Virus record (IMG/VR): IMGVR_UViG_3300009419_000009 | Location: 62,001-121,177 of that record | Direction: 5' to 3' (one strand) | Source of the DNA: an uncultured virus (IMG/VR IMGVR_UViG_3300009419_000009) | Lineage: Duplodnaviria; Heunggongvirae; Uroviricota; Caudoviricetes | DNA: 59,177 bases | Shown: positions 13,057 to 59,177 of the stretch, one piece after another | How the letters are laid out: each line of letters opens with the position of its first letter | How positions within the stretch are numbered: the stretch's first letter is position 1 | Program-made: the position numbers and the translations under genes | The notes under the pieces: model-generated | Databases searched by the model: none | What the model was told of the DNA's origin: nothing | The model's input: the letters and a program-made list of their open reading frames with translations, nothing else

Positions 13057-13785
13057 TTAAGCGTTGGCTAACACAACAGTAGGTAGTTCTACTACTGATG
13101 GGCCGTCTGCGGCTGATGGGTTTCCACCGCTGGTGCCTGCTTCTGCAGATCCAGTAATGGTCCATTTTGCAGTATCACCATCAGGAACATCAAATCCTGT
13201 GCCGCCGTCGGTGTTTTGTACCAATTCAACTTTGTTCTTGTTGATCTTCTTGACCCAGTATGTGCTGCTTTGGCTGTCTGTAGCAACAATGGCCATTTCG
13301 CCAGCGGCGCTTGGTGTAGCGGCCACTAGCTTGCAAACTGCGGTGCCGTCTTGCGATCTAACTCTAAAACGCTTGCTACCAACTTGTTTCAAAATGTCGT
13401 TGCCAGTGGTGCGGTTTGTGGAACTGATACGCACTTGCGGTGCCAGTGCATTAGCACGAGCAGTTGCAGCCGATACGGAAGTTAATACTGCTGTCAAAGT
13501 TAGTGTACCTTGTGTGCCTGTGTCTGCAGAGATAGTTGCTGATGTGTAGCCAGAACCAACTGTGCTAATGGACACGTTGCCAATTACACCGTTTGCAAAA
13601 GCATTGACAGTACCAACTGCTTGTGTACTACCTGCAATCTGCGGTGCAGAAATTGTTAGTGCATCACCTGTTGTGTAGCCAGATGAATTGTTAGTGCCAC
13701 CTAATGTGACACTGGAGATACCTTCACCGCCAATGTTGTCGGGGTTTGATTCACCAAAGAATTTTTTATTTAGAGGACGTCCCAT
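13057..13785 (-). CDS. Virion protein following gp23 (242 aa, MGRPLNKKFFG...), possible head decoration
   Basis: Start moved to ATG 13785 (AAGGAG at 13793-13798); GSGY-type repeat; own late promoter and terminator. Confidence 0.7.
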   Translation of the reverse strand: MGRPLNKKFFGESNPDNIGGEGISSVTLGGTNNSSGYTTGDALTISAPQIAGSTQAVGTVNAFANGVIGNVSISTVGSGYTSATISADTGTQGTLTLTAVLTSVSAATARANALAPQVRISSTNRTTGNDILKQVGSKRFRVRSQDGTAVCKLVAATPSAAGEMAIVATDSQSSTYWVKKINKNKVELVQNTDGGTGFDVPDGDTAKWTITGSAEAGTSGGNPSAADGPSVVELPTVVLANA

Positions 13786-13804
13786 TTGTTTTCTCCTTAA
13801 TATG

Positions 13805-13865
13805 ATTAGCGTTCTAGGCCTACGCGGTGGGTACCGCATAAGTTACTTGAGTGTCAAGTGAACAT
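13805..13865 (-). promoter_or_regulatory. Structured 5' leader (two adjacent hairpins)
   Basis: Hairpins at 13842-13863 and 13821-13840 between late promoter and RBS. Confidence 0.55.
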
Positions 13866-23268: not shown

Positions 23269-23298
23269 TATAAATAAGTGTGTATTTCAATATTTATG
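23269..23298. promoter_or_regulatory. Face-to-face late promoters: TATAAATA (+, 23269-23276) and CATAAATA (-, 23291-23298)
   Basis: Both motifs within the 57-nt divergent gap. Confidence 0.75.
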
Positions 23299-23309
23299 AG
23301 GATCAAAAT

Positions 23310-24185
23310 ATGAGCACAGAACCAAACGCAACAGCCAGCGTAAACCCACTGAGTAAATTTTTCCGTACTCCGGCCATTTACTTTTCGCTGCCATCTGGTG
23401 GAAAATGGTGGCCAGAGGGCAGTTTGGACCTGCCCGAATCCAACGAAATTGCAGTTTACCCAATGACCAACAAAGACGAAATTTTAATTCGTACTCCAGA
23501 TGCGCTGATCAACGGGCAGGGTGTGGTAGAAGTCATACAAAGTTGCATTCCCAACATCAAAGATGCATGGAAAATGCCAGCTACCGATGTGGATGCGGCT
23601 CTTATTGCCATGCGCATTGCCAGCTACGGACACAAAATGGATTTTTCCAATCAGTGCCCACACTGCAAAGAAGAGCATGATTATGCTCTAGATCTACGAC
23701 ACATGCTGGAAACTATCACTGCACCAGACTATGAAACCAAACATCTAGACCTAGAAGTGATAAAAATTCGATTTAGACCGCAAAAGTACTGGGAAGTAAA
23801 TCACGCTAACAAAACAGCATTTGAAGTGCGCAAGCTACAGATGGCCTTGGAAAACTTGCCGGTTACCGAAGAAGACGAAGAAAAAACTCGTGCAGTAACA
23901 CAACAACTCAAACGTGTTAACGAAATCAATCACAACATCATGGCCAAAAGCACAGAGTACATTGAAATCATTGACTCTGGGGAGAGGGTTGAAAGTCCTG
24001 AGCAGATTGAAGAATTCTACGGACAGATTGGTAGAATAATGTTTGACAAGATTCAAGACGAAATCACAAAGATACAAAAAGAAGGTTCAGTTAAACCTGT
24101 GTCTGTCAACTGCTTGAGTTGCCAAAAGCCCATGGAAATAACCATACTGTTTGACTACGCTAATTTTTTCGTAGTCGGCTCTTGA
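23310..24185 (+). CDS. gp26: gp26-like baseplate hub/tail assembly protein (291 aa)
   Basis: NPLSKFFR.P.IY..LPSGG, PMT.KDE, D.DA.LIA.RIASYG, CPHC and CLSC; start at ATG 23310 with GAGGA RBS. Confidence 0.8.
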   Translation: MSTEPNATASVNPLSKFFRTPAIYFSLPSGGKWWPEGSLDLPESNEIAVYPMTNKDEILIRTPDALINGQGVVEVIQSCIPNIKDAWKMPATDVDAALIAMRIASYGHKMDFSNQCPHCKEEHDYALDLRHMLETITAPDYETKHLDLEVIKIRFRPQKYWEVNHANKTAFEVRKLQMALENLPVTEEDEEKTRAVTQQLKRVNEINHNIMAKSTEYIEIIDSGERVESPEQIEEFYGQIGRIMFDKIQDEITKIQKEGSVKPVSVNCLSCQKPMEITILFDYANFFVVGS

Positions 24186-24400
24186 CTCTCGACGATGATG
24201 AAATTGGTCTACTCCTAGAAGAGTACGATCAGCAGTCAAGGGCCATACGAGAAGAGATGTTGCGATTTACCTGGTGGATGCGTGGAGGATTGAGTTATGA
24301 TGATGCTTATTCATTAAGCTCAGACGAGAACGATATCATTCGCAAGATCATCAAAGAGAATATGGAAGCAACAAAAACTTCAGGTATGCCATTCTTTTAA
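24164..24400 (+). CDS. gp51: gp51-like domain, probably made as a -1 frameshift extension of gp26
   Basis: WWMRGGLSYDDAY.LS..E..II..IIKEN; frame opens exactly at slippery T TTT TTC (24164-24170); only a TTG start without SD. Confidence 0.65.
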   Translation, partial: FFRSRLLTLDDDEIGLLLEEYDQQSRAIREEMLRFTWWMRGGLSYDDAYSLSSDENDIIRKIIKENMEATKTSGMPFF

Positions 24401-24830
24401 GATCGCTTGCGCGATCTATTGATTTCGCTATCGCTCATCAATATTGTTTTTTTCTTTACGCTCAAGCGAATTAAGTTTCATCTAGATTCTATGGTCACAC
24501 TTCGCCCTGGCCGGGCAAAGGTTAGCTTCATCTGAGTTCTGATAGCCACATAGCGTTACAACATTACAGAGGCGGTTGTCCGGTACCTCGAGTTGCGTCT
24601 TTATTACAACGGCGGGCTTGTACACATACGCTAACATACATACAAACCGTGTGCTATCGCTAGCACGTCTTTTTGCCTTTATTATCTTCAAACAATCAAA
24701 CCACAGCAATTTGCGATCTTCGTCCTGTAAAGGATAGTGATTGAGTACTCTGTACAGCGCAGAGAATTCCGTCCCTGTGATCCGAGATCCAGGTTTAGAG
24801 CACACGATGTTGGCCTGTGCTAGCCTTAAC
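24401..24830 (-). ncRNA. Candidate large structured non-coding RNA (~430 nt), class not recognised
   Basis: About nine hairpins; GNRA loops and G-U pairs favour the minus strand. Confidence 0.6.
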
Positions 24831-24836
24831 TGTTGA

Positions 24837-25352
24837 TTATTTGCAGAGTTGCTTGACAGCGTCTGCGTTTATTTCCCAAAACGTATCATAGTCCATGATG
24901 AACCAATGACCGTGTTTGGCGGAGCCATAATTAAAATGCCGTGTAAAAGTAAGGGGAGTTGAGTTGGGCTGTGCTTGTACTGCTACAAACATTCCTTTGC
25001 GATTGAACTTCATGAACAAAATGTTGAAATCGCCTTCGTCGGCTACATCCATGGTTTGTTCAATCCATTCGTCTAGTTGCTTACATGAGCCTTGAAAGAG
25101 TTGATGAAATGGAAAGTCTTTGTAACTTTTGCACTCAGCGTTGAACTTCGGAAAACTCTGTCCAGGGATAATGTCCCCTTTGAAGCTTCGAATCTGTCCT
25201 TCGTGCAATACCTCTTTGCGTGAGGCATTTGACCCACCAATATAAGCGCCAGAGTGCGGAACGCGGATAAAGCGTTCTCCGTAGGTTACTGTAAGGTGAT
25301 CTGCTACCCTACGTTCCCATGCGTTGCCTTTGGCTTTTTGTGGTGATGTCAT
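24837..25352 (-). CDS. Holliday junction resolvase-like PD-(D/E)XK nuclease (171 aa)
   Basis: KAKGNAWER.VA..L, R.P.SGA, GDI, ECK.Y, W.EQ; CATAACTA variant late promoter at 25363-25370. Confidence 0.75.
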   Translation of the reverse strand: MTSPQKAKGNAWERRVADHLTVTYGERFIRVPHSGAYIGGSNASRKEVLHEGQIRSFKGDIIPGQSFPKFNAECKSYKDFPFHQLFQGSCKQLDEWIEQTMDVADEGDFNILFMKFNRKGMFVAVQAQPNSTPLTFTRHFNYGSAKHGHWFIMDYDTFWEINADAVKQLCK

Positions 25353-44010: not shown

Positions 44011-44019
44011 AATGACCGT

Positions 44020-47000
44020 ATGAGCATCAAAAGCATAAATCTTTTACCCGAAGTATTTCGTACAGAGCCTAACCGCAAGTTTCTGGCAGCAACCATTGAT
44101 CAGTTGATCAGTGAAGGCGATCAAAGTGTAAGATTAGATTCCTACATTGGTCGTAAAAATGCTCCCACTTGGAAAACTGGTGACACCTATGTGAAAGAAA
44201 CCAATAGCGATAGACAAAATTATCAGCTTGAAACATCAGTCATTGTTGATGGTGGACAAGGCCGCACAGATTTTTACAGCAGTTATCTAGACCTATTGCA
44301 ACAAATTGCATACTATGGTGGTATTACCACAGACCATAGCAGATTATTTGCCAATCAGAGTTATACATTTGATGGATGTTTTGATGTTGATAAATTTGTA
44401 AACTTCAACAATTATCTATGGCTTCCAAATGGCCCACCAGAGATTACTATCACGGCTGGCAATCAAGACATTGCATTAGAATACAGTGTTGTTCGCAATC
44501 TCAATGCACGTGGATATCAGTTTACCGAGTATGGAGACAACAGAAATCCCATTATTACATTGGTAAAAGGTCAGTCTTACAAATTCTTAATCAACCAAAC
44601 AGGAAATCCTTTTTGGATTCAAACAGCCGCTGGTGTATCAGGCACACTAGGGCCTGTTGCTGAACAGTTGAACAGACAGATACTGGGACTAAGCAATAAC
44701 GGAATTGATTCAGGCATACTTGAATTCAATGTGCCACTAGGTGATGCACAAGACGTACAGGTCACTGCTGTGTCTGCAGCCACAGTGGACTTTGCTACCA
44801 CTGCCAGCTACAGCAAAATTCAAAGTTATTTGGTAAATCAACTGGCCAAACAAGGCGGCATTGACGGAGTAAGTCAAGGACTGAATGGAAAAACCCTTGT
44901 GTTTGCAAATGCAGATGTGGACAACGAACTGTGGAAAGATGCCGGCAATTTTGATTTTGACAAGTTTGACGAAACACCATTTGAATATGGCGAACTGGTG
45001 CCAGGCGAAAAACGTCGCTGGGTGTTCCGCATTCGTACAATTGATGTAGGAAACAATCGCCAAATTATAAAACTTGATCCTATCACTGAAGTATTACCTG
45101 GCCAGAAAGTCTATGTAAAAGCCGGACAAAGATATTCCAACGTTGAATTATTGTTAAACAACAGTGGGTTCTATGAAACTATAGATCCTATCACTGCACC
45201 GTTGGACACACTGTACTATCAAGACAATTCAGAGCCTGGCTTCTTTGGCATCATACGTTTGGTCAATCCAGGCACAGAAACCATCAACATTGACAATGAC
45301 ATCATTGGAACAGAAAACTATACCAGCCCTAATCAAGTTGTATTGACCAATGGCATGCATATCAAGTTTGATAACACTGCTACTCCAGCAAGATATGCAA
45401 ACAACAACTATATTGTTGAAGGTGTTGGCACAGCAATTAAACTAATCAACGTTGGTAATTTCACTGTGCCAGAACAATACGCAGTTGACAGCGGATTAGC
45501 GACTCCGGACTACATCACTATCAATCGTGCCAGCAAAGATCTCAATGCATGGAGCCGTAGCAATCGCTGGTTCCATATAAGCACCATTGAAGACGCCGCC
45601 AAATATAGAGAAGATCCAACACTGTTGGATCTATCAATGGTTCAGCGTGGCAAACGCCCAATTATTGAGTTTGATCCAAACATCTATTTGTTTGACTATG
45701 GCCGTACATCCAAGAGCCCAGTGGACATTATTGATTTTACAATAACCAATGCTTTCCAAGACGTTGAAGGTCAAGAGTACTATACAGTACGCATGCCTAA
45801 CGGAATTGTTCGTCAGCTGACACCAGGTGTTCGAGTAATTTTTGCAGCCGACGATGATCTTGAAGTGCGCCGTAGAATATATCGAGTGGATTTTATCACA
45901 ACATCAACTGGTAACAGAATTCACTTGGTAAGCCAAAACACACAAGATTTACCTGCATACGAAGTTGCTGGTGTAACTATTACCAGCAACTTGTCTTATA
46001 ATTTTATACCAACTGTTACTTTTGCCAAGCCATTGCCAGGTATCGGCACACGAGTTGCACAAGGCAATGTGGTACTTAAAAATAGTGGAATTGAAAGCAT
46101 TGATATTGCTTACGGTGGTGTCAACTTTATTGCTGATCCCTATATTAAAATCAACAGCGACTACATTGATCAAGTTCAAACAGAAATTAACTATCGCACA
46201 TTCAAACAGATAGATTATGTTAGAATTGATTCTGCTGGTACCGGCTATACAACTACAACTCCTAACATCAGCATTAGCAACCCAAATCAATATTGGGCAA
46301 CAGTAACAAATGTGAGTCTTGGCACATCAGGTTTGACATTTGAAGTGGCAGCAGGTCCATTAATTAATCCTCCGACCACTGGTGTGATTCAAGTTGACGG
46401 ATCTGGCAATGTGGTTGCTACATTTGGCAATATTGGACTTGGGTATTACCAAGCAAACGTGAGTGCAAGCATCAGCGCCCCAACTGCACCTGCAGGCACA
46501 GTACCAGTTGTAAACAATGTTTATTTGTATGCAAATGGAGCAATTAAATCTATTAGATTAAGCAGTTATGGATCCGGATACCTAACTGCGCCTACTATTA
46601 CATTCACTGGCGCAAACACCTACACTGCTTCAGTAACTACAGTTGGTCGAGTTACAACATCTGCCACATTGTGGGATTTCCTAACACCGGGATATCAAAT
46701 TATTGCCAATGGTATCATTGGTGGCACAATCGTTTCTGCAATTGACAATGAAGCAAATTTAATTACAATCAATGCGCCAGCTGTGTCTGCAAATCTAGAA
46801 GCTGCCACTCCATTAACTGGAGTAAGCACAGTTTCAGTTGGTGATTTGTGGACCTTCAAAGCCAATGCAACTGCTGGCACATTTGCAACTGCCACAGCAA
46901 CACAATTGGCCAGCAAATCAGTCAAAGTCAACGATACCAGCATGTTAGATGTTGGAATGGTTATAAGTGGCGGTATTGACCCAGTATTGATTTCTGATAT

Positions 47001-50000
47001 TCGTATTGATGTTGTTCCAACAAGAATTATTACTGCGTCTAACCACGGATTTGTTGACAAAGACCTTGTCTACATACGAAATATTGTAGGCACAGTAGAA
47101 CTAAACTTTTCTCGATACTATGTCAAGCGCATTAGTGAAAATGCAATTGACTTGTATGCAAGCAGTGACTTGTCAGACGCATCAGCGCAAGACTCTCGTA
47201 ACTTTACAGATTATCTAAGTGGCGGACAGATAACTGCGTACACCATTGACTATGCAACTACTAGAGTAACAAAAGTATTGAGCGAAACTGAATTTGAAGT
47301 TAATCGTGAAATTAGTATTCTTAACGGAACCAAACTAGTGTTTGGTGGTGTGCCAGCACAGTCTGTTGCTCGCAGTGATGGTAACGCAATCTATAACATC
47401 AGCATTACGGAACCTGGCAGTGGATATACCACGGTTCCAAACGTAACAATTGAATCTAGCCTTGGCAATCAAGCAGTTGCATCCGCTATTACAAATGATA
47501 ATATCATTAATTATATCCGTATTGTTGATCCTGGTACAGGATACACAGTGACGTCGGCTACCACAGCCGACATTATCAGTGAAGTAGAAGTTTTAACTTC
47601 GGCAGTTTCTACCTACGGATCAACAACATTGTATTTTGACAATGCCGACGATTTGCTTCCTGTACAAACAGGATGGTTGGCATTTTTAGTATCAACCATT
47701 AATGGAGAAGAAATTCTCACAGACTTTGGACAAGAGCCATATGCGGCAACTGATACCACAGGACCAAATACAAACACGTTCCAGTCATTCATGGACGTGA
47801 GTAAAACTACTGCCATTGTTCGATCAGTTATCAATGTTGACAGTGATCAAATTATTCTAAGCGGTCCAATTAATGCTCAGGACAGCGACGGCGAGTTGAT
47901 TGACCTCCCAGCTGGGTCACGTATCGTGTTCACTGCCCAGAATAGATTTTTTACCACAGAAGGTGTAGGAAGTAGCGCAAGATTTAACGGCCATACAAAA
48001 ACTGGATTTATTAGTGTTAATGAATTGGTTGACGAAACTGTCATGGCACTAGATAATGTAAATGGTGTCCAGCCAGGCATGTTGGTTGGAGATCTGGCCG
48101 GGTTACTGCCTGCAGGTATTCAAGTCCGCACAGTTGATGCATATACCAGAAGAATTACACTAAACAATTCTGTTACCCTTCCGTCGCTGACGCAGGTAAC
48201 ATTCAGTGATTTTGTACAAGCAACACCAGCTGTGGCACCTGCAGAAATTAGCAGTATCACCATTACTGATCCAGGACTGGGTTATGTGCATGCACCTGAG
48301 ATAATCATACAGGCGCTGGTGCCTGTGGTAGAATTAATTGGTGCCTGCACCGGAAGTGATCAATTGGCCACGTACCTGGATCCAATCACATTAGATCCAG
48401 TGCTTTATCAATCTGGAAACGTAATTATTGTTGATAGCTATGATGGTGTAGTGATTGACAGCAAGTTGACCAGTAACTATAATAATCAAGGCGTAGGTGT
48501 AACCACTGGTGCAGATCGACCAACAGTTGTGGCACTGGTATTAGAACAAACAGCCAGCGCAGTGTTTGAACCAAGAATTGTAATTGATAAAAAACAGTCA
48601 GAGTTCAACGACATCATTATTACATTCACACAAGCCGCTGAAGGTGTGGCACAGATTGTTCAATTCAATAATGCAATTGATTATCAAGATGACACACCAG
48701 AAACATATGATGTTGACGACACTGTTGTTGTCAACATTCCTGCCAATCAGGAACAAACAACAACAAATGTGATAGCATACAATCAATTTTATTTTGATGG
48801 TATTGCTTGGTCACCAAGTCAACAAAAACAAGATACAAATCAAGAACCATTGTATGATGCATTTGATACCAATGGGGATAGTGCCGGTGACACATCAGTG
48901 TACCAGGGAACTAAATTTATTGGAACTAGAATTTTTGGTTACAAGTTGGGTGCTGGAAAAAGCGACAATGTATTGAATTTTCCATTGAGTTATAAGAATT
49001 TTGAAAACGTTGGTGATATTGAATTTAGTAATTATTTCCAGACTGACTCGTTCAACTTCTTGGACGGATTTGCTGAAACAAATACTCCTATCAGTAACTT
49101 TGTTCTAAAACAACAAACAGAATCTGGCAATGTACAATTGAGAAATATTTGGACGCCAATTGGAACTGACAGCAAACAGTACCAATTGATTTCTCATGAA
49201 TTTAACGGAACTACCAATTACTTTGAATTGGATGTAAAAGAAGAGATCAGTCAAGAAATTCCTTACCTCAAAGTATATGTAAACAACACTCGTTTATTAG
49301 AAACGCAATACACTGTTGAGCAATCTGGTGCAAGAACCGCAGTGGTGATTCCTGCTAGTTCGTTGGTCGTTGGACAGCAAATAACAATCAAAGTATACAG
49401 TAAACAGCAAAGTCTATTGGGTCATTATCAAACTCCGGTGAACCTAGATACCAATCCGCTGAATAGCAATTTTGAAAGCCTGACCCTAGGACAAATTAGA
49501 AATCATCTAGTAACCAAAGTAGACAATCATTATGGCATTGTTGGACCAGCTCTTGGCAAAAACAATCTACGAGATCTGTACAATAAAAATTGGCAAGGAA
49601 GTATTCTCCAACACGCAAGTCCAGTGAGTCTAGCAAGTTTGTTCTTGGTAGATCAAGACCTAAACATTATACAAGCCGTTGAGTTTGCACAAAAAGAATA
49701 CACCAAGTTCAAGAACAAATTCATTGACATGACTTCTAGACTGCAAATTGATACATTGGATATTCCAGGAAGTGTAGATCTAATATTGAAGTCATTGATG
49801 TCAGGCAAGAGTCCGGCAAGCCCATGGTATGACAGCGACATGGTGCCTTACGGTAACAAGTTCCGTAAAGTAACAAAATTGCCAATCCTGAACATTAGAC
49901 AACGAACATATCTAATTCCTAGTGCATTTGATTTGTCAACAATCTCTCGACAGTCGGTATTAATATACATTAGAGACTCTGCAACTCGACAGCACCGCCA

Positions 50001-53000
50001 GTTACTTAATGAAATAGATTTTGATTTTTCACGTGAAACATCAAGCATTGTTCTCAACGCCAATGTGGATTTAACATACACTAGCGAATTGCAAATAGTA
50101 GAATATTCAACCACCGTTGAAAATTACATTCCTGAGACTCCAACCAAACTTGGAATGTATCCAAAATACACTCCTCGAATTTATGTAGACAACACCTATA
50201 GACAACCAACTTTAGTTGTTGAAGGGCATGATGGCAGTATCACACCTGCATTCAATGACTACAGAGATTTATTGTTACTGGAACTTGAATCTCGCATCTA
50301 TAATAACATCAAGGTTCGTTACGAAGATACCTTGCTTGAGATATACGATACGATTCCTGGCAAATACAGAGAAACTGATTACTCTCGTCAAGAGTGGAAT
50401 CAACTGTTGAGCAGATCTTTCTTGGGATGGATAGGGACCAACAGACTAGACTACAGTGCCAACGATTTCTTTAATGCTAACGATCCATGGACATGGAATT
50501 ACGGAAAATTTGTTGATCGCACTGGCGAAAAACTGCCAGGACACTGGCGTGGAGTTTACAAGTACTACTACGACACAGACCGTCCACACACCCATCCGTG
50601 GGAAATGTTAGGCTTCAGCGAAAGACCTAGTTACTGGAATGATCGTTATGGCCCAGCACCATACACTAGTGGTAACAGAGTACTATGGGAAGATATTCAA
50701 TCAGGCTACATCCATTCAGGTGCTAGAGCAGGTATTGACAAAAGATTTGCTCGCCCTGACCTAACAAAAATAATTCCGGTGGATGACACAGGTGAATTGC
50801 TTGATCCTTTGAGACTTGGACTGAGTAGTATCACTGCTCTTGAAACATCGTCACCATTCAGTATTGGTGACAATGGCCCAGTAGAAACTGCATGGAGGCG
50901 TAGCAGTGACTATACCTATGCAGTTCAGCTGGCATTGATACTAGCACGACCAGCATTCTATCTTGGAACGCAGTTTGATAATAGTCGATATCGCTTTGAC
51001 TCAGGCCTTGGGCAGATCACCGACAGGGAAACTCGTCAAAGATTAATACCAAGACTAATTAAAGTGCCAGAGTCTGGCCTTAAAGGTCAGGAAGTTGTAC
51101 TAACTGCTGGTTACAGCAATTGGATAAGAGACTATCTTGCACAACAGGGTGTAGATGGTAGTGCCAAGATGCGTGACTATTTCTTGCGTATGGACGTGAG
51201 ATTAAGTTACAAGATGGGCGGCTTTACTGACAAGAAAATGTTAGAAGTGGTGGCCGAGCAAAGCAGTCCCGGCGGCAGCGGACGAAATATCATTGTGCCT
51301 GATGAAAACTATCGTGTGTACTTGCACAAGAGTACCCCTACCAAACGTTTGGCCTATAGTGCAGTTATCATTGAAGTCAGTGACAATGGTTGGAAAGTCA
51401 GCGGTTACAATAGCACAACTCCATATTTTACTATTATTCCTAGTCAGGTCAACAACAACGGTTACGCACTCAAGGAACTAAAAGTTGGAGTAACGGTGTA
51501 CAAGGATTACCAGCTACGAAAGCTGATAGTGCCGTACGGTTACGAATTTAATACTCATCAACAGTTGTCAGACTTTTTGACCAGTTACGGTAGATATCTG
51601 ACATCACTTGGATTTGTATTTGATGAATTCAACAATGATCTTGAAGTTGTAAAAGACTGGGATCTAAGTATTAGAGAATTCCTAACCTGGAGTCAGCAAG
51701 GCTGGAAACAGGGAAGCATTATTGTAGTAAGTCCAATTGGCGGTAAAATCAGTGTGGCGTCTGACTACGGTGTGGTTGATCAAGTGACCAATAAAAATAC
51801 TGGCAATCGTTTACTTGATCAAAATTTCAGCTTGATTCGCCAAGGCAACTACAGCGTGAGTCGCGACGGTGGATTGTTCACTGCATCGGCAGCATTTGGA
51901 AAAATGATTGCGTTGGCAGACCTAAGTTTGGTCGAATACGAACATGTTCTAATTTTTGATAACCAAACAGTTTTTAGTGATGTTATCAATCAGCCCGAAA
52001 TTGGCAATAGACAATACCGCTTGAAACTGACCGGCTACAAGAGTGGAGAATGGAATGGGCAACTCAATGCACCTGGTTATATCTACAACAATGACACTGT
52101 TAATGCATGGCAAGCTGGCAAATCCTACAATATAGGAAGCCTGGTAGAATACAAAAATCAATATTTTATTGCACTACAAAAAGTACCAGAAACAACCACG
52201 TTTGACTTTAACTACTGGAAGCCAATTGATAGGAACAAGATAAAAACTGGTCTATTGACCAACTTCTCTAATTCTGCAAATCGTTTACGTCAGATCTATG
52301 ATACTGATCAAATGAAACGCAATGAGGACTTTGACAACTATTCTACAGGACTGATTGGTTTTAGAAATCGTGAATTCCTGCAGGATCTAGGCATTGACAA
52401 AACTTCACAGGTAAAGTTTTACCAAGGCTACATCAAACAGAAAGGCACAAAAAATGCCATCAACAGTTTGACAGCAGGTCAATTTGATCGTGTGACCAGT
52501 GCAATTACACTTTATGAAGAGTGGGCATTGCGTGTGGGCGAGTACGGAGCAACTGGCAGTGATCAGTACATTGAAGTTGAGCTGGACGAACAATCCTTTA
52601 CTGATGATCCAAGTACCATTAACTTCTTGAACTTTGGCGATGCTAATGCACCTGGTGCTATCAACTTTACACCTTACACAATCTATCGCGGCTCAGAAGA
52701 AGTGTACAACAAAAACATTGTTAAGGCTAGAAATGATCTATTGCCTCGCATTGGAGATAATGTAACAGCAGGATATCCTCGACTGGACGATGTTGATGGA
52801 ACCATATACGATATTTCAAATTATCAAAATTATTTTGGACTGGTAGACACTCTTGGCTCAGGATACAAGCTCTGGGTTGGTGTTGACAATGACAAGAGTT
52901 GGAATGTGTATCGAGCAACAGAAACTGACGTGTTGCTACTCAGTATCACTAGAACAAACACAAGTCAGTTGTTGTTTGTGTTTGACAAACCTCACGGAAC

Positions 53001-56000
53001 TGCCGCTAAAGAATTAATTGTTATTAAAAACTTTGACGACAATCAATTTGACGGATTTTATGTTGTAACATCTGTGCAAGACAACTTGAGTGCATTAGTT
53101 ACTGGTTACAGAAATCTTGATACATTTGCGCAGATTCAAACTGTGGAAAGTTCGGGTGTGTACTTCCGAATGGTCAATGTTCGCTTTGATCAAGTGAGTG
53201 AAATCATTGATTTTACTCCACCACATGGATGGAGAAATGAAGATCGTGTGTGGATTGACAATGACACCAGTGATAATTATTGGGGCGTGTTCCAGAAAAT
53301 AGACGGATGGGAATTCAATCAACTATTGCCACTTCGTCAGGGCGAAGATCGTTTTCTAGAAGGGTACGGTAAAGAAGTTAGACTCAGTGTTGACAATCAG
53401 ATTATTCTTGCTGGTACACCAAACTACACAAATGGTTCGTTGAGCGGATTGAAAGTCCTTGATCCAGGTGCAAACTATGATAGCCCTACGGTTAGAATTG
53501 GATCTCCAACAGGACTAAACGGTCAGCAAGCATTGTTCTCTGTAGTTAAAAGCAATGGGGCATTGACCAAAGCCAATGTATTGGTTGCTGGATCAGGTTA
53601 TACTATTGCACCAAATGTAACAATCATTGATGAATGGAATACTGTAACCACAGCAGAAACATTAAACACCGCCGAGATTTATTTGTCCTCGGGTGATATG
53701 AGTAAAATATATGTTGGTGACTATGTGTCTGGCACTGGCATTCCGTTTGAAACTCAGGTTACTGAAATTGACGTACCCAATAATTTAATTGAAGTACAAG
53801 GTCCAAATTACAGCGGGTTGGTATCTGCGACCAGCATTACTGTGGCAACAGGTACAATATCATTTACCACTGGAATAACAGCAACGTCAACTCCAATTGT
53901 GGCAGGCGATGGTATTCGAGCTTATGTATCAGGCGACCTAACCACGTATCTTGAAGGTTATGTTGAAAGTTTTGTGGGAACAGTATTGACAGCAAACATT
54001 CAAATCACAGCTGGATCTGGTACCCACAGCAGTTGGCTTATTGCAACATCATTGAGTGTTAGAAACAATACTCCTATTCGATTCTATAGAGGTGCTGGCG
54101 GCCGCGCAATCGCCAGCCTCACACCCACTGGAGTTGATGCTATTCAGGTAATTGATGGCGGCAGCGGATTTGTACAAACACCAGTGGTACAAATCATTGG
54201 CGGTGGCGGATTTGGCGCACAAGCAACTGCGGTACTGTCAGGAAACTTCATTGAAAAAATTACTGTTACCAATCCAGGCAGCGGATATACAGAAGCTCCT
54301 TCTGTGCTATTGCTTACCAATAACCCAACTCCTGTTAATTTAGTAGCACGGTTACAGTTAACCACAGTAAACAGCATAGTGGTAACTGACAAAGGTGAAG
54401 ACTATCGTGATCCTACAATTAATATTTCTACACATTCTTTAGACACAAGTTCTAGTGCTATTGGTACACTGGCATTTTATGGCAACGGTGGCGTACAAAG
54501 TATTACATTTGCCAGCAGTACTGATCGAGGTACCAGCTATGGCTCAGGCACTACCGTTACTATTGCCAACAGTGCAACCGGAAGTGGATTTGTTGGAACT
54601 GTTGCAACATTTGCCAATGGTAAAGTAAATTCTATAACTGTATCAGTTCCAGGCAGCGGCTACGAAACTGCATTTGCTAAAGCTAACATTTTTTATGCTG
54701 GCGGCAGCGGCGCAACAGGAAATATTGGTAGAACTATTGATGGTATTAGTAACTTTACCGGAGCCACAGTTGTCAGCTACGGACAAGGCTACCTAGCGGC
54801 TCCTACTGTGGAAGTGATTGATCAAAGTGGTGCAGGCGCTGGAGCCATTGTAGAGCCAATTTTCCCAACTGGTCAAGTGAAAACATTCTTGCGCCCAGAT
54901 CAAGGATCTTACACAATTGAAGAAACTCAGCTGATCAAGCCATTTAACAGTGATGCTCGAGAGTTTGGTTTCAGTATTGATATTGGAACCATATTGGCTG
55001 CAATTGGTGCGCCAGGCACATATAAAGAACAAGGTGGTGTGTTTGTTTCACAAACACTAGGAAGTCAGTGGATCAGTTATCAAATGATTTTCCCTGGTGG
55101 ACTAAGTGACGGCGATAGATTTGGCCACAGTGTGGCCATGAGCAATGATCAACAATGGATATACATTGGGGCACCGGGTGCAAACAAAGTGTATTGTTAT
55201 GGTAAGAAAACTCAAACTTTTACACGAGTAACTCTTATTCCAGTAGTTGGACAAATCACATACGGCACAAATTTGCTTGGACTCAAGAGTGCAAACGAGA
55301 TTAAAGTTCTAGGAGCCAATGGTAAATTATTTGAACCAAACTTTGACTACACTGTGGATAATGCAGGTGGTATTTTCTTTGCTGATTTTGATCGCATTGC
55401 ATCACAAACGGCTGTTTATATCACACGTCAACGTTTACAAACCACAATAATTCCAACAGTTATACGTAACTTGACCACACGTAGTTATGCACTTGAGTCA
55501 ACTCCAGAAACCATTGACCAGTTACTGGTGTACGGTGCTACTGGTCGAGTGTTTGTACCAAACAAAGAATTTATAGTGGTTGGCAGTAATATTGTATTCT
55601 TAGATGATGAATTTTTAACAGAACCAAGCATTGTGGTTGTTCAACGAGATCTATTCTATCAGTTGGTTGATGTAATTGAGCCACCAGACGCTATCAACAG
55701 CGATGCCAACTTTGGGTGGGCAGTGCGTTGCGATCAAGGTGGTTATAGAATTATTGTTGGCGCACCCGACACAGATGACCTGGATGAGGAAGACAACACA
55801 ATTCCATCTGCTGGACGCACATATGTGTTTAGCCGCAGTTATGAAGTTATTCTAAGTCTAGGCGATAAGAAAGTCTTTACGTTTGATCAATTGCGAAATG
55901 TAGCATCATTTAGTATTGACAACACATTATTGACCAATTTGGTAGACTATACAATTGAAAACAATTCTGTCATCTTAACTAATTTTCCGCGCAACGGCGC

Positions 56001-59000
56001 AACAATCACAGCCGATACAAACTTTTTTAACTTGATACAAACAATTCCATGTCCAACTGTTGTTAATCTAGGACGATTTGGTGCATCAGTTGATATTGCT
56101 CCTGACAACAAGAGTCTGGCTGTTGGTAGTCCTGGTTATCGTGACGAGAATTATTACAACGGGCAAGTATACCGTTATGTAAACAAAGGATTGTTCTATG
56201 GCACTGTGACCACAGACAAAACTTTCCTACAAACAAATGTTGAGCTGGGCCAAACAATCAGAATCAACAATAGACTTGCAACCTTTACTTCAGTGGTACC
56301 GGGCACTCAAACCAACGTAACAGCGGCGTATGGTTCAACCGGAACTGAAATTTCTCTAGTGAGCAATGTTGGCTTAGCCATTGGTGATAGAATCATCGGA
56401 CCAGACATTGATGCTGGATTGGGTTTACAAATTGTTGGTTGGGGTCCTGCAACCCCTGGCATGTTTAGTAATATTGCAGTCAATACTCCAGTTACAGTCA
56501 CTAGTGGTGATTCATTACAATTTACTAGATTTGGTGATAATATTTCTAAAATTAGACGCAACATTGAGTCTGCCAATGCTGTGGCTGTGGAAACAGTGCA
56601 AAACGAAAACGGAACACTTACCATTAGAGTCAGCGAAGACAGCAATCTTCGAGTACTTGACATTTTACCAGGCAACAGCGGCACAGCACTTGACGGCATC
56701 GGATTACGTATCTATGAACTAACACAAACAATTGGTCACCCACGCTACGGTGTACCAGAAAAGTTTGGTACAAAAGTAAGCATTGACGACACAGGTCTAA
56801 CTGTGGCAATTGCCAGTGAAGGCGGTAACACACTAAAGACCAGTACCTTTGACAAACAAACAACTGAGTTTGATACAGATACCACACGATTCATTGACAG
56901 TTTGAATGCATCTGGTGCTGTGTACCTTTATGATTATTTGAATCCTCCTGGCGAAACTTTAGAAAATCCAGGCAAATTGCTATACAATCAAGTGTTACAA
57001 AATGCCTTTGTATTAACTGGTGATAATTTTGGTAGTTCAATTGATATCAATCGCGGATGGGCATTGGTCGGCGCAGAATTCAGCAACTACCATAGCATCA
57101 AAGCAGGCGCAGTACACATGTTCATCAATGAAGGAAATGTCAAAGGATGGAGCAGATTACGCAGCCGCGGCGAAGAAGTTGATATTGATTACATTAACAG
57201 TATCATGCTTTATGATAAAGTTAAACAAGTTAATGTTCAAGACTTGGATTACTTTGATCCAGCAAAAGGAAAAATACTTGGCATTGCAGACCAAGATTTA
57301 GATTACAAGAGCAGTTATGATCCTGCTGCCTACAACCGAGGAACTCGTTCTTCTGTGACTATTGCGACAGATTCATACTGGACTTCGTTACAAGAAGGCC
57401 AAACCTGGTGGGATCTAAGCCTTTGCCGTTACGTCAACTATGAACAAGGCAGTTTGAATTATAGGACCACACACTGGGGAGAACTATTCCCAGACAGTAA
57501 AATTCAAGTTTGTGAATGGGTGTCAAGTTTAGTGTTGCCAAGCGAGTATGCAAGTACCACCGGCGACGGCGAAGCCAAGTACCCTGACAACAGTGCCTAC
57601 ACTGAACAAACCTATTACGACAGTTCTAGTAGTTTAATTAAAACCAGATACTACTTCTGGGTAATTAACAAACAGATGTTTGACCGTACTAAGACTTCTC
57701 GAAACAACAGTATTGTCACACTTGAAAGTTTAATTCGAGATCCACAAGCTCAGGGTATTGCGTTTGCAGCCGCGATTGCCCCTAATGCATTCAATATCTA
57801 CAATTTCAAACAATACTTGAAATCGTCTGACACTGTGTTCCGCGTGGATTATAGTCGCAGACTTGGTGACATTATTAGTCACAACGAATTTGAATTAATT
57901 CAACAAGGAAATAGAAATAGCAGTATTCCTAGCAAATTAATTAGCAAACTGATTGACAGTTTGTCTGGTGAAAATAGCACAGGCGCAGTGGTTCCTGATC
58001 TAAGACTAACTGATGCAGACGCTTATGGCATCAGTGATCTTCCTCGCCAGAGTATGATACGCAACAATCTTGACGCGGCAAAAGTTTTTGTGTCTTTTGT
58101 AAACAATGTGCTCAGTTCACAACTTGTGACCAATAGACGAAACTTTACCCGTTTACTTAAAGAAGAACCAATTCCGGCTGCTGGTGTAGGATTTTATGAC
58201 GCCTCTGTAGACAGCGTTGACCAACTGTTGTATATTCCAGATAGTGAACTGTTTGTAGGATTCAAAGTTCTTGTCACAAGTGACAGCGATTTTTACAATT
58301 ACTGGACTGTGTATGAATACAGTCAGTTTGTTGGTTTCCGAATGATTCGCATTCAAAGCTATGATACCACACGTTGGTGGAATTATGTCAACTGGTATGC
58401 ACCTGGCTATGATCAATATCTCAACATTGATTTTGTAGTTCCTCGCTATGTAGATGTCTATGCCTTGAGCCTGCAAGCAGGGCAAACAGTTAAAGTTTTA
58501 GACAGCGGCAAAGGCACGTACACAGTATATGAATATACCACTAGCGGTAACCTTGTTGAAGTTGCAGTTGAAAACGGAACAATACAACTAAGCACTGGTT
58601 TGTATGATCCTGCACAAAGTCGCATTGGATTTGACAACAGTGCGTTTGACCAAGTTGGATTCAGCACAACACAAAGTGTAGAACTGCGTAACATTTTTGA
58701 AGCCTTGGTCAATGACATCTTCATTGATGAGAATCTGGTAGAGCTAAACAACTTGTTCTTTACCTTGCTGAACTATATCTTGAGCGAGCAAATTGTGGTT
58801 GATTGGGCTATCAAAACCAGCTTGATTACCATACTGCACAGAATTCGTAAACTAGAACAGTTTACAAACTACATCAAAGACAATCAGGACTACTACGAAC
58901 AGTACATCAATGAAGTCAAGCCTTATCGTAGTCAGATACGTGAATATCTATTGGACTACGAAGGACTTGACGAACTAAATGCTGGTGTAAGTGATTTTGA

Positions 59001-59177
59001 CTTCCCTAGCATCTACGACAAGGCCACCGGGACTTATCGTGTGTTGAATAAAAACAATCCAAGAGATTTAGTTTTTATCAATGCCAGCAGTCGCAAAGAC
59101 TGGTTAGAAAATTACACGTATCAAATTCAAAGCATTGCTTTGAATTACGGTGGTACTGGATACACAGTTGCACCACG
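44020..59177 (+). CDS. Giant baseplate/virion protein (gp7-like position), >5,050 aa, 3' end outside the window
   Basis: ATG 44020 (MSIKSINLLPEVFRTEPNRKFL...); same frame reads cleanly at every spot check through 59175 (...YGGTGYTVAP); the ORF track has no stop-terminated ORF in this frame; GSGY repeats and FG-GAP repeats. Confidence 0.9.
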   Translation, partial: MSIKSINLLPEVFRTEPNRKFLAATIDQLISEGDQSVRLDSYIGRKNAPTWKTGDTYVKETNSDRQNYQLETSVIVDGGQGRTDFYSSYLDLLQQIAYYGGITTDHSRLFANQSYTFDGCFDVDKFVNFNNYLWLPNGPPEITITAGNQDIALEYSVVRNLNARGYQFTEYGDNRNPIITLVKGQSYKFLINQTGNPFWIQTAAGVSGTLGPVAEQLNRQILGLSNNGIDSGILEFNVPLGDAQDVQVTAVSAATVDFATTASYSKIQSYLVNQLAKQGGIDGVSQGLNGKTLVFANADVDNELWKDAGNFDFDKFDETPFEYGELVPGEKRRWVFRIRTIDVGNNRQIIKLDPITEVLPGQKVYVKAGQRYSNVELLLNNSGFYETIDPITAPLDTLYYQDNSEPGFFGIIRLVNPGTETINIDNDIIGTENYTSPNQVVLTNGMHIKFDNTATPARYANNNYIVEGVGTAIKLINVGNFTVPEQYAVDSGLATPDYITINRASKDLNAWSRSNRWFHISTIEDAAKYREDPTLLDLSMVQRGKRPIIEFDPNIYLFDYGRTSKSPVDIIDFTITNAFQDVEGQEYYTVRMPNGIVRQLTPGVRVIFAADDDLEVRRRIYRVDFITTSTGNRIHLVSQNTQDLPAYEVAGVTITSNLSYNFIPTVTFAKPLPGIGTRVAQGNVVLKNSGIESIDIAYGGVNFIADPYIKINSDYIDQVQTEINYRTFKQIDYVRIDSAGTGYTTTTPNISISNPNQYWATVTNVSLGTSGLTFEVAAGPLINPPTTGVIQVDGSGNVVATFGNIGLGYYQANVSASISAPTAPAGTVPVVNNVYLYANGAIKSIRLSSYGSGYLTAPTITFTGANTYTASVTTVGRVTTSATLWDFLTPGYQIIANGIIGGTIVSAIDNEANLITINAPAVSANLEAATPLTGVSTVSVGDLWTFKANATAGTFATATATQLASKSVKVNDTSMLDVGMVISGGIDPVLISDIRIDVVPTRIITASNHGFVDKDLVYIRNIVGTVELNFSRYYVKRISENAIDLYASSDLSDASAQDSRNFTDYLSGGQITAYTIDYATTRVTKVLSETEFEVNREISILNGTKLVFGGVPAQSVARSDGNAIYNISITEPGSGYTTVPNVTIESSLGNQAVASAITNDNIINYIRIVDPGTGYTVTSATTADIISEVEVLTSAVSTYGSTTLYFDNADDLLPVQTGWLAFLVSTINGEEILTDFGQEPYAATDTTGPNTNTFQSFMDVSKTTAIVRSVINVDSDQIILSGPINAQDSDGELIDLPAGSRIVFTAQNRFFTTEGVGSSARFNGHTKTGFISVNELVDETVMALDNVNGVQPGMLVGDLAGLLPAGIQVRTVDAYTRRITLNNSVTLPSLTQVTFSDFVQATPAVAPAEISSITITDPGLGYVHAPEIIIQALVPVVELIGACTGSDQLATYLDPITLDPVLYQSGNVIIVDSYDGVVIDSKLTSNYNNQGVGVTTGADRPTVVALVLEQTASAVFEPRIVIDKKQSEFNDIIITFTQAAEGVAQIVQFNNAIDYQDDTPETYDVDDTVVVNIPANQEQTTTNVIAYNQFYFDGIAWSPSQQKQDTNQEPLYDAFDTNGDSAGDTSVYQGTKFIGTRIFGYKLGAGKSDNVLNFPLSYKNFENVGDIEFSNYFQTDSFNFLDGFAETNTPISNFVLKQQTESGNVQLRNIWTPIGTDSKQYQLISHEFNGTTNYFELDVKEEISQEIPYLKVYVNNTRLLETQYTVEQSGARTAVVIPASSLVVGQQITIKVYSKQQSLLGHYQTPVNLDTNPLNSNFESLTLGQIRNHLVTKVDNHYGIVGPALGKNNLRDLYNKNWQGSILQHASPVSLASLFLVDQDLNIIQAVEFAQKEYTKFKNKFIDMTSRLQIDTLDIPGSVDLILKSLMSGKSPASPWYDSDMVPYGNKFRKVTKLPILNIRQRTYLIPSAFDLSTISRQSVLIYIRDSATRQHRQLLNEIDFDFSRETSSIVLNANVDLTYTSELQIVEYSTTVENYIPETPTKLGMYPKYTPRIYVDNTYRQPTLVVEGHDGSITPAFNDYRDLLLLELESRIYNNIKVRYEDTLLEIYDTIPGKYRETDYSRQEWNQLLSRSFLGWIGTNRLDYSANDFFNANDPWTWNYGKFVDRTGEKLPGHWRGVYKYYYDTDRPHTHPWEMLGFSERPSYWNDRYGPAPYTSGNRVLWEDIQSGYIHSGARAGIDKRFARPDLTKIIPVDDTGELLDPLRLGLSSITALETSSPFSIGDNGPVETAWRRSSDYTYAVQLALILARPAFYLGTQFDNSRYRFDSGLGQITDRETRQRLIPRLIKVPESGLKGQEVVLTAGYSNWIRDYLAQQGVDGSAKMRDYFLRMDVRLSYKMGGFTDKKMLEVVAEQSSPGGSGRNIIVPDENYRVYLHKSTPTKRLAYSAVIIEVSDNGWKVSGYNSTTPYFTIIPSQVNNNGYALKELKVGVTVYKDYQLRKLIVPYGYEFNTHQQLSDFLTSYGRYLTSLGFVFDEFNNDLEVVKDWDLSIREFLTWSQQGWKQGSIIVVSPIGGKISVASDYGVVDQVTNKNTGNRLLDQNFSLIRQGNYSVSRDGGLFTASAAFGKMIALADLSLVEYEHVLIFDNQTVFSDVINQPEIGNRQYRLKLTGYKSGEWNGQLNAPGYIYNNDTVNAWQAGKSYNIGSLVEYKNQYFIALQKVPETTTFDFNYWKPIDRNKIKTGLLTNFSNSANRLRQIYDTDQMKRNEDFDNYSTGLIGFRNREFLQDLGIDKTSQVKFYQGYIKQKGTKNAINSLTAGQFDRVTSAITLYEEWALRVGEYGATGSDQYIEVELDEQSFTDDPSTINFLNFGDANAPGAINFTPYTIYRGSEEVYNKNIVKARNDLLPRIGDNVTAGYPRLDDVDGTIYDISNYQNYFGLVDTLGSGYKLWVGVDNDKSWNVYRATETDVLLLSITRTNTSQLLFVFDKPHGTAAKELIVIKNFDDNQFDGFYVVTSVQDNLSALVTGYRNLDTFAQIQTVESSGVYFRMVNVRFDQVSEIIDFTPPHGWRNEDRVWIDNDTSDNYWGVFQKIDGWEFNQLLPLRQGEDRFLEGYGKEVRLSVDNQIILAGTPNYTNGSLSGLKVLDPGANYDSPTVRIGSPTGLNGQQALFSVVKSNGALTKANVLVAGSGYTIAPNVTIIDEWNTVTTAETLNTAEIYLSSGDMSKIYVGDYVSGTGIPFETQVTEIDVPNNLIEVQGPNYSGLVSATSITVATGTISFTTGITATSTPIVAGDGIRAYVSGDLTTYLEGYVESFVGTVLTANIQITAGSGTHSSWLIATSLSVRNNTPIRFYRGAGGRAIASLTPTGVDAIQVIDGGSGFVQTPVVQIIGGGGFGAQATAVLSGNFIEKITVTNPGSGYTEAPSVLLLTNNPTPVNLVARLQLTTVNSIVVTDKGEDYRDPTINISTHSLDTSSSAIGTLAFYGNGGVQSITFASSTDRGTSYGSGTTVTIANSATGSGFVGTVATFANGKVNSITVSVPGSGYETAFAKANIFYAGGSGATGNIGRTIDGISNFTGATVVSYGQGYLAAPTVEVIDQSGAGAGAIVEPIFPTGQVKTFLRPDQGSYTIEETQLIKPFNSDAREFGFSIDIGTILAAIGAPGTYKEQGGVFVSQTLGSQWISYQMIFPGGLSDGDRFGHSVAMSNDQQWIYIGAPGANKVYCYGKKTQTFTRVTLIPVVGQITYGTNLLGLKSANEIKVLGANGKLFEPNFDYTVDNAGGIFFADFDRIASQTAVYITRQRLQTTIIPTVIRNLTTRSYALESTPETIDQLLVYGATGRVFVPNKEFIVVGSNIVFLDDEFLTEPSIVVVQRDLFYQLVDVIEPPDAINSDANFGWAVRCDQGGYRIIVGAPDTDDLDEEDNTIPSAGRTYVFSRSYEVILSLGDKKVFTFDQLRNVASFSIDNTLLTNLVDYTIENNSVILTNFPRNGATITADTNFFNLIQTIPCPTVVNLGRFGASVDIAPDNKSLAVGSPGYRDENYYNGQVYRYVNKGLFYGTVTTDKTFLQTNVELGQTIRINNRLATFTSVVPGTQTNVTAAYGSTGTEISLVSNVGLAIGDRIIGPDIDAGLGLQIVGWGPATPGMFSNIAVNTPVTVTSGDSLQFTRFGDNISKIRRNIESANAVAVETVQNENGTLTIRVSEDSNLRVLDILPGNSGTALDGIGLRIYELTQTIGHPRYGVPEKFGTKVSIDDTGLTVAIASEGGNTLKTSTFDKQTTEFDTDTTRFIDSLNASGAVYLYDYLNPPGETLENPGKLLYNQVLQNAFVLTGDNFGSSIDINRGWALVGAEFSNYHSIKAGAVHMFINEGNVKGWSRLRSRGEEVDIDYINSIMLYDKVKQVNVQDLDYFDPAKGKILGIADQDLDYKSSYDPAAYNRGTRSSVTIATDSYWTSLQEGQTWWDLSLCRYVNYEQGSLNYRTTHWGELFPDSKIQVCEWVSSLVLPSEYASTTGDGEAKYPDNSAYTEQTYYDSSSSLIKTRYYFWVINKQMFDRTKTSRNNSIVTLESLIRDPQAQGIAFAAAIAPNAFNIYNFKQYLKSSDTVFRVDYSRRLGDIISHNEFELIQQGNRNSSIPSKLISKLIDSLSGENSTGAVVPDLRLTDADAYGISDLPRQSMIRNNLDAAKVFVSFVNNVLSSQLVTNRRNFTRLLKEEPIPAAGVGFYDASVDSVDQLLYIPDSELFVGFKVLVTSDSDFYNYWTVYEYSQFVGFRMIRIQSYDTTRWWNYVNWYAPGYDQYLNIDFVVPRYVDVYALSLQAGQTVKVLDSGKGTYTVYEYTTSGNLVEVAVENGTIQLSTGLYDPAQSRIGFDNSAFDQVGFSTTQSVELRNIFEALVNDIFIDENLVELNNLFFTLLNYILSEQIVVDWAIKTSLITILHRIRKLEQFTNYIKDNQDYYEQYINEVKPYRSQIREYLLDYEGLDELNAGVSDFDFPSIYDKATGTYRVLNKNNPRDLVFINASSRKDWLENYTYQIQSIALNYGGTGYTVAP

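Follow-up and report, generated by a model that had tools for sequence, protein, structure and literature searches.

The 436-nt intergenic gap described here lies within a 59,177-nt stretch of DNA, referred to as a whole as the window, which comes from a 121-kb linear virus record. The gene content of this record (portal, gp26-like, gp46-like and PD-(D/E)XK resolvase-like genes, detected with Pfam and PHROG profiles) is that of a T4-related jumbo myovirus. The gap separates a minus-strand gene that encodes a 171-aa Holliday-junction-resolvase-like protein of the PD-(D/E)XK type (24837..25352; Pfam PDDEXK_15, E 1.9e-25; PHROG 244) from a convergent 72-aa ORF (24182-24400, plus strand), which is preceded by a gp26-like gene (23280-24185, plus strand; Pfam T4_baseplate, PHROG 150). 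We call the 72-aa ORF gp51-like by analogy of position and not from a profile match. Together, the gp26-like gene and this ORF (23280..24400) are a syntenic landmark outside the element. The preliminary description of this DNA had singled out the gap as the longest intergenic stretch (~435 nt), which was borne out, the next longest being 215 nt; apparently bigger gaps were discarded as an artefact of a 5055-aa open-ended ORF. The element contained in the gap occurs as a single copy within its own record. Among other features of the window, a TTTTTTC run (24164-24170, plus strand) lies in the terminal part of the gp26-like ORF, which overlaps the 72-aa ORF; an open frame of more than 5000 aa (44011-59175, plus strand) leaves the window at its edge; and the Rfam freshwater-2 motif (60 bits; 13783-13860, minus strand) is found directly 5' of the start of the gene that follows the major capsid gene.

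All nine stems that had been named for the minus strand are present, as are both AGATGAA copies (24527-24533 and 24477-24483, minus strand). The fold of the single sequence beats chance only modestly, with a z of -1.97 for the minus strand (4 of 100 shuffles as good) and of -1.01 for the plus strand. Comparison of 51 of the 57 homologues that carry the window's 5' domain, a set from which longer forms were left out, yielded a 46-pair structure in which 91% of the cells are paired and 33 pairs have changed on both sides; none of 500 shuffles reached its score, and slid controls were 37-46% paired. This comparative evidence confirmed the proposal of a conserved structured minus-strand RNA, and the 436-nt gap does contain a real folded RNA. 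The codon conservation of a 107-aa ORF, the check that could have counted against an RNA, found no footing, because the ORF is open in only 1 of 102 homologues; it also lacked any Pfam or PHROG match. The RNA starts about 11 nt past a stop codon, and no promoter-like site was found near the window copy. In metatranscriptome contigs of near-identical relatives, which are uninformative on strand, ends or expression level, the stretch from the nuclease stop codon to the 5' part of the RNA was bridged in two of four runs; at the low depth of these data, positions 24412-24546 were without coverage in all four, and the flanking genes were covered too. The bridging contigs agree with the suggested co-transcription with the nuclease, and they do not prove a single transcript.

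The RNA had been called unclassified. Its variable 5' domain (24690..24825, minus strand) nevertheless matched the Rfam family Polynucleobacter-1 (RF01718) over the full model (positions 1-141) with 120.5 bits (E 1e-25), passing the gathering cut-off of 37 bits. In the available part of the original report, this motif is a probable cis-regulator from Burkholderiales and fresh water for which no function is given, and many of the 16 rows of its supplementary alignment reach past a GGUAC core to about window position 24549, with a pseudoknot (PK2) marked (Weinberg et al. 2010, PMC2864571). The window RNA has a 3' extension with a matching GGUAC core and pseudoknot (PMC2864571). Thus, the RNA is not unclassified, and about 280 of the 436 nt correspond to a published motif of then unassigned function because the 2010 alignment, as available, spans them. 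The whole Rfam model accounts for the 5' 136 nt of the RNA. Two differences separate the published motif, as far as that source is available, from the element studied here: the 2010 alignment lacks a second pseudoknot (PK1), a repeat module and DNA-type hairpins, all three of which the window element has; and Polynucleobacter-1 was listed for Burkholderiales and fresh water, whereas the window element belongs to jumbo phages and has a replaceable 5' domain. Of 20 homologous loci, only four matched RF01718, the remaining ones having other 5' domains, and the Polynucleobacter-1 domain was present in 5 of 23 records. No other Rfam family (known ribozymes, tRNA/tmRNA, GOLLD/ROOL) was matched at gathering or relaxed thresholds, and the earlier statement was that hallmarks of tRNA, tmRNA, RNase P and group I/II introns are lacking. 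The element is, accordingly worded, a known RNA motif that is newly extended, assigned to jumbo phages and provided with a testable mechanism.

Downstream of the 5' domain, and all on the minus strand, the RNA forms a GNRA-capped hairpin (24651..24666; covariation helix 1), present in the 2010 structure too, and a long G-U-rich stem (24615..24648; helix 2) with two-sided changes in 12 of 13 pairs. The loop at 24628-24633 pairs with 24551-24556 as PK2 (helix 3; 98.8% paired, 5 of 5 pairs two-sided), which was already in the 2010 alignment. PK1 joins 24606-24610 with 24575-24579 (24575..24610; helix 4; 98.8% paired, three two-sided pairs), and in 116 of 118 sequences each of its pairs, between an ACAA loop and GTTGT at 24606-24610, is 90-100% formed. 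This second covarying pseudoknot is absent from the 2010 structure and is new here. It replaces part of an earlier assignment, since the inner CGG-ACAA-CCG stem is without compensatory change and its loop pairs as PK1 instead. The conserved core (24558..24596) consists of a helix (24592-24596/24558-24562; helix 5) and an invariant helix (24586-24589/24569-24572; helix 6) around GGTAC, with invariant columns. The last RNA hairpin (24500..24520; helix 7) stands between two copies of a 7-nt repeat, and its loop lies 24-25 nt 5' of repeat 2 in 98 of 102 homologues. The compact invariant GGTAC core and the nested pseudoknots would suit a self-cleaving or ligating ribozyme, with the repeats as its site of action or with the release of the RNA from the mRNA upstream as its role, a task for which the RNA start soon after the stop codon would also be apt. 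We consider such an activity quite improbable, because no ribozyme family was matched even at relaxed E-values, the RNA contains no internal complementary guide, and copies in cultured phages have their own TATAAT-type promoters and so need no release from mRNA.

Homologues were gathered by nuclease-based sampling (80 IMG/VR loci out of 116 confirmed) and by a nuclease-independent DNA-pattern scan, which gave at least 120 further stretches. Profile searches located the element in 72 of the 80 nuclease-fetched loci; the other eight comprised four with less than 300 nt of downstream sequence and four with 3 kb and no match. In a pattern scan of bacterial genomes, none of the matches listed (at least 120) was a full element, the best partial match having an E of 3e-4, and no Polynucleobacter chromosomal copy was among them. 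Cultured phages, searched by blastn with the window element, gave no match. Element matches were apparently in excess near contig ends. The same slot also holds two divergent RNA classes with other cores (L052-L063 and L064-L079), which had no Rfam match; by eye, both appear to retain the repeat around the last hairpin, with a bulge of 1-2 nt in class C.

The gene upstream of the RNA most often encodes a GIY-YIG protein; in some loci it encodes EndoVII, and in others no nuclease. Among the matches listed, 68 pattern-found loci had a long ORF just upstream, which encoded a GIY-YIG protein in 48 (the 142-aa family was called SegE GIY-YIG from one member), a PD-(D/E)XK protein in 6 and another product in 14. 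A set of 38 partial records, i.e. fragments recovered through one gene or the pattern, contained a full-length GIY-YIG gene in 13, PD-(D/E)XK in 23 (two of them with weak partial GIY matches) and neither in 2. The presence of a nuclease directly upstream in 54 of the 68 loci, and the fact that full-length GIY-YIG and PD-(D/E)XK genes were never found together in the 38 partial records, might suggest that the RNA is the guide or partner of the adjacent nuclease, as had been proposed, or else the template of a reverse transcriptase jumping between the repeats. However, the slot is occupied by proteins of three unrelated folds; each of the four combinations of RNA subtype and nuclease fold exists (26, 12, 9 and 15 loci, with 16 other, in 78 of 102 loci); a gene intervenes between nuclease and element in 14 of the 72 loci; extra copies of the element have no nuclease neighbor; and in cultured phages the resolvase is oriented away from the RNA. 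As for the reverse transcriptase, RVT_1 was detected in none of five long records, one of them 99% complete, with a profile that was positive in 3 of 14 controls and that a divergent enzyme could escape. Both versions are therefore very improbable. With PD-(D/E)XK, GIY-YIG, EndoVII or no nuclease at all being interchangeable upstream, and no fixed co-evolving partner, the nuclease is a syntenic neighbor of the RNA and not its partner.

With regard to the slot itself, PD-(D/E)XK, SegE-type GIY-YIG and EndoVII genes seem to swap beside gp46 (38 IMG/VR records; loci L391 and L425), a replacement which suggests that the 142-aa GIY-YIG protein is a junction resolvase. The label resolvase is, for this protein, an analogy that we assume; it is often annotated as a homing endonuclease or NAD synthetase.

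The AGATGAA copies that flank the last hairpin are the most informative feature of the preliminary description. Repeat 1 (24527..24538, minus strand) consists of the 7-mer at 24527-24533 with ACT and a bulged C (24534) on its 5' side, and repeat 2 (24477..24488, minus strand) has its 7-mer at 24477-24483. In 118 non-redundant sequences, the strongest covarying pairs were identity pairs 50 nt apart, seven of which are among the top mutual-information pairs. When both positions were anchored on features that ignore identity, the two 7-mers were identical in 102 of 108 homologues, against a shuffled mean of 12.5 and a maximum of 27; the ten of the 118 sequences that could not be anchored show repeats by eye, and the six non-identical cases include three that look mis-anchored, two with G/A at the first position and one that differs at the last. 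The 7-mer varies often among homologues, yet the copies within a locus match. On a tree built from upstream sequence (102 sequences, selected with identity in the score), position 1 changed 26 and 27 times in the two copies, with 28 joint changes, and in 17 of 19 sister pairs that differ both copies had changed. Moreover, record G005 carries two elements with different 7-mers, each matched internally and one of them away from any nuclease.

No third copy of the 7-mer, direct or complementary, was found at a constant place within 2 kb (56 loci), and therefore its natural complement would be the template strand. The geometry is asymmetric: 23-26 nt (SD 0.6) separate the hairpin loop from repeat 2, and 11-24 nt, plus one outlier, separate repeat 1 from the loop (SD 3.6). 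Because the linker on the 5' side is flexible and the spacing on the 3' side is fixed, we infer that copy 1 may act as a tethered guide and copy 2 as a fixed site, the two being compared via the template strand. Rare variants (L088, L182, L187, XbC2 and K64-1, by eye) have a one-base bulge in copy 1, so that copy 1 can be described as copy 2 plus one bulged base. The direction of pairing is weakly supported, with wobble-type mismatches of 2 versus 0 and a lower energy for model A in 70 of 102 sequences when RNA parameters are used as a proxy. Few G/A intermediates exist (2 of 102 sequences at position 1 and none at a position that changed 18 times), a scarcity that could point to one repeat being copied onto the other instead of to selection on pairing, and mismatched intermediates are less frequent than in the stems of ordinary RNAs. 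Site-specific recombination between the repeats was rejected, as they are 50 bp apart, in direct orientation and without inverted arms.

Past repeat 2 the sequence contains an AT-rich spacer (24444..24476), with an imperfect inverted copy of a hairpin motif (24459-24469) and an A-run, and two hairpins on the minus strand. In H1 (24417..24443), tandem G.A pairs lie beneath a GCGNNAGC mini-hairpin (motif as defined in the available text of PMC13037366), and H2 (24400..24417) has cGCAAg in the window and a cGNAg triloop in most homologues (64 of 90). The spacer has a mean AT content of 72%, versus 54% in the RNA (90 loci). The GNRA loops that had been taken to favor an RNA thus hold for the hairpin at 24651-24666 and not for these last two, whose loops are of DNA type in the homologues. 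In 73 loci, the RNA-sense strand had 51 cGNAg hairpins within the 130 nt after repeat 2 and the template strand had 12, and none was found in the RNA or the flanking genes; similarly, GCGN1-2AGC had 62 and 17 occurrences on the two strands, at 8.6 kb each, versus 16 in the flanking strands, which total 112 kb. According to the available part of PMC13037366, such mini-hairpins are very stable as DNA and much weaker as RNA, and they are found at the priming sites of G4, St-1, alpha3 and RSF1010 and at N4 promoters. Both hairpins of the window, H1 and H2, conform to the motif shared by the G4/St-1/alpha3 origins, RSF1010 ssiA and the N4 promoters; unlike G4-type sites, they come after an RNA gene in double-stranded jumbo-phage DNA, and primase binding to them is a proposal. 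On these grounds, H1 and H2 are read as hairpins that would function in single-stranded DNA. On the plus strand, where it lies 5' of a T-run, H1 may also be the terminator of the convergent gene, and a terminator-like match was found at H2 on the same strand. RNA and DNA origin had been offered as alternatives, and both are probably partly right, an RNA gene being followed by a DNA-structure region.

The terminator-like matches on the plus strand, the elaborate fold with its two pseudoknots and the near absence of mismatched intermediates would also be accommodated by an ornate RNA or RNP scaffold, in which a dimeric protein or parallel homo-pairing reads the repeats, gene conversion keeps them alike, and H1 and H2 are terminators. 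We regard this as rather improbable, since different 7-mers coexist within one genome, the invariant bases beside the 7-mer differ between the copies and have not been homogenized, and the DNA-type hairpin loops are kept where the next gene is co-directional.

In the cultured jumbo phages PA5oct, PBECO4, XbC2 and GAP32, the slot between gp26 and the resolvase is a gene-poor gap, and the slot gene is PD-(D/E)XK or EndoVII. All four appear to have look-alikes of the window architecture in several co-oriented copies, the main one of which adjoins gp46/47 and the resolvase. The PBECO4 gap matched 73 records at 294 places, including one weak Bacillus-phage match. PBECO4 has four copies and XbC2 five, in each case on one strand, and the minimum spacing between copies was wide compared with random points (p 0.047 and 0.002, respectively, two tests that are not independent because the genomes are related); in PA5oct, whose three copies are not evenly spaced, p was 0.68. 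A descriptor made of PK1 and the core helix found, in a relaxed form with a background of 2-10 matches per 300-345 kb, 14 of the 15 cultured-phage loci, missing the one at 76 kb in PA5oct; a first, stricter form found 2 of 15. The covariance model R1 scored none of these 15 loci; the lake classes A2 and B and the second copy of G005 were scored. Rfam gave no match in any of the cultured-phage loci. A repeat of 6-7 nt was detected by script in 11 of 12 enterobacterial or Xanthomonas copies and by eye in the twelfth, and these copies share a loop-to-repeat-end distance of 31-37 nt (31 in the window), the bulge in copy 1 and coupled changes; the 95-kb copy of XbC2 has a 7-mer unlike that of its sister copies, matched within the copy. 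A TATAAT-type hexamer was present upstream of 11 of 11 cultured copies examined. In several of them a terminator-like hairpin with a U-run directly follows repeat 1, and the RNA may thus end before repeat 2.

One of the PA5oct loci has been detected as a transcript. In the available text of Lood et al. (2020, PMC7318152), ncRNA004 is an RNA of about 620 nt that is annotated from RNA-seq, with neither structure nor function; it peaks early in infection and makes up 0.02-0.08% of phage reads, a share that speaks against a scaffold. PA5oct has three paralogues of the element, with an ambiguous repeat in two, and ncRNA004 is a paralogue of the copy in the gp26-resolvase slot. It shares with the window the core, both pseudoknots, the repeat and the downstream hairpins (descriptor and by eye), and it differs from the window copy in having its own promoter and a different 5' part. 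Linked through synteny and the descriptor, outside the covariance model, ncRNA004 is probably a copy of the window element. Its published 3' end (PMC7318152), a boundary from short-read RNA-seq that may be imprecise, coincides with the final base of repeat 2 and lies 57 nt short of H1; the RNA is annotated to end there although no U-tract terminator follows repeat 2. In the literature outside subscription papers, neither the repeat module nor multi-copy RNA origins were found to be described for these phages: as available, the main text of PMC5259590 lacks the words intergenic, non-coding and ncRNA, PA5oct is not among the phages of PMC10914365, and bioRxiv 10.64898/2026.09.22.753630 does not mention the motif.

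We lean, with moderate confidence, toward the element being a transcription-primed (R-loop) replication origin of the ColE1 kind. An RNA of about 350 nt with two pseudoknots would be produced on the minus strand, and repeat 1, the proposed internal guide on a flexible U-rich tether 5' of the last hairpin, would pair with the template DNA at repeat 2, with one base bulged. This proposed DNA target, 50 nt downstream, would also be the place where the transcript ends. The persistent RNA-DNA hybrid would keep the duplex open and supply or protect a primer, the AT-rich spacer would melt, and the exposed strands would form GCGNNAGC/cGNAg mini-hairpins that mark the loading of primase or helicase. 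The fold, the coupled identity of the repeats, their geometry, the DNA-type loops, the independence of the nuclease and the multi-copy look-alikes are observations; pairing with the template, the R-loop, priming and replication are what we infer from them.

In ColE1, a stretch of RNA II pairs with the template strand and seeds a persistent hybrid, which requires rG/template-dC pairing (PMC4412123), and helicase and primase load on the displaced strand (PMC4412123, PMC5043065); T4 origins are R-loops (PMC4412123), all as described in the available parts of these sources. RNA II is a long folded transcript, like the window RNA, and uses a short stretch against the template of a like-sense downstream site, as is proposed for repeat 1. 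The window RNA has no sequence or Rfam similarity to RNA II or RNA I, its tether would be a variable, bulged 7-mer 50 nt upstream rather than a G-run far upstream, there are several copies per phage genome, unlike in ColE1, and no counterpart of the antisense RNA I was found at the window element, which is known here from sequence alone. By sequence, it is not a member of the ColE1 family. T4 oriF and oriG combine a promoter, a persistent hybrid and an AT-rich unwinding element, with several origins per genome, an arrangement that the element, from a T4-related myovirus, may share; in the part of PMC4412123 available, they are described as promoter plus unwinding element, without a dedicated pseudoknotted RNA, an internal repeat or mini-hairpins.

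Besides these R-loop precedents and the mini-hairpins of priming-site type, an origin would be in agreement with the identity coupling (102 of 108), the joint changes on the tree and the fixed spacing between loop and repeat 2; with the lack of a third or complementary copy; with the bulge in copy 1; with different 7-mers each matched inside its copy in one genome (G005 and XbC2); with the co-oriented, spread-out copies of PBECO4 (4) and XbC2 (5); and with the early peak of ncRNA004 and its end at repeat 2. Other observations count against it. GC skew, proposed as a check on a DNA origin, tracks the coding strand and does not switch at the element, either in its own record or in three long records (G004, G005 and G002); the hybrid would be short (7 + 2 bp) and its pairing direction is weakly supported; the rare G/A intermediates possibly reflect repeat copying; N4 promoters use such DNA hairpins too (PMC13037366, as available); and from the cultured phages come the failure of the covariance model at all 15 loci, the ambiguous repeats and uneven spacing in PA5oct, the terminator-like hairpin with U-run after repeat 1, and the possibly imprecise 3' boundary of ncRNA004. 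All of the repeat evidence would fit equally well an R-loop between repeat 1 and the template that serves transcript release or anti-termination, the initiation of recombination, or a mark for packaging or late transcription. The location of the main copy beside gp46/47 and the resolvase and the end of ncRNA004 at repeat 2 without a U-tract terminator are consistent with a role of this type, which by itself explains neither the mini-hairpins on both strands past the RNA end nor the spread, co-oriented copies; we judge it unlikely.

The wider proposal, that jumbo myoviruses as a clade use self-guided RNA origins, in which the two-pseudoknot RNA of each copy has a freely variable guide that invades only the DNA site downstream of it and several co-oriented copies divide the replication of a 290-370 kb genome among them, is put forward tentatively, as a possibility that falls a little short of an even balance. 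If it is true, the orphan motif Polynucleobacter-1 would turn out to be the 5' part of a primer RNA, an RNA motif catalogued in 2010 without a function would receive one, and replication start sites would be named for a large group of giant phages, among them the cultured phages PBECO4, 121Q, PA5oct and Paride of E. coli and P. aeruginosa. Standard scans for RNA structure overlook covariation of the identity type between a segment of an RNA and its DNA locus, and the variability of the 7-mer lets matched mutations test the pairing model. Should the element prove not to be an origin, the repeat rule and the division into RNA and DNA parts would still call for an explanation.

Some further observations were made in cultured phages. 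Core-pattern matches in Salicola phage SCTP-2 (three, inside paralogous coding genes) and in Atu_ph07 (at the start of a protease gene) were dismissed as chance. SCTP-2 has three dispersed, near-identical small genes (L406, L407 and L408), each with a promoter and a terminator. In Sinorhizobium phage Phosso, a 1-kb structured gap (L379, 3487-4500; z -3.9) lies between the genes for RNase HI and resolvase, with mini-hairpin motifs on both strands and no recognizable core. Finally, four tiny ORFs are annotated in PA5oct over a strongly folded region at 75.7-77.2 kb (L381; z -9) and are probably not proteins, and similar small ORFs are annotated across the element in other records.
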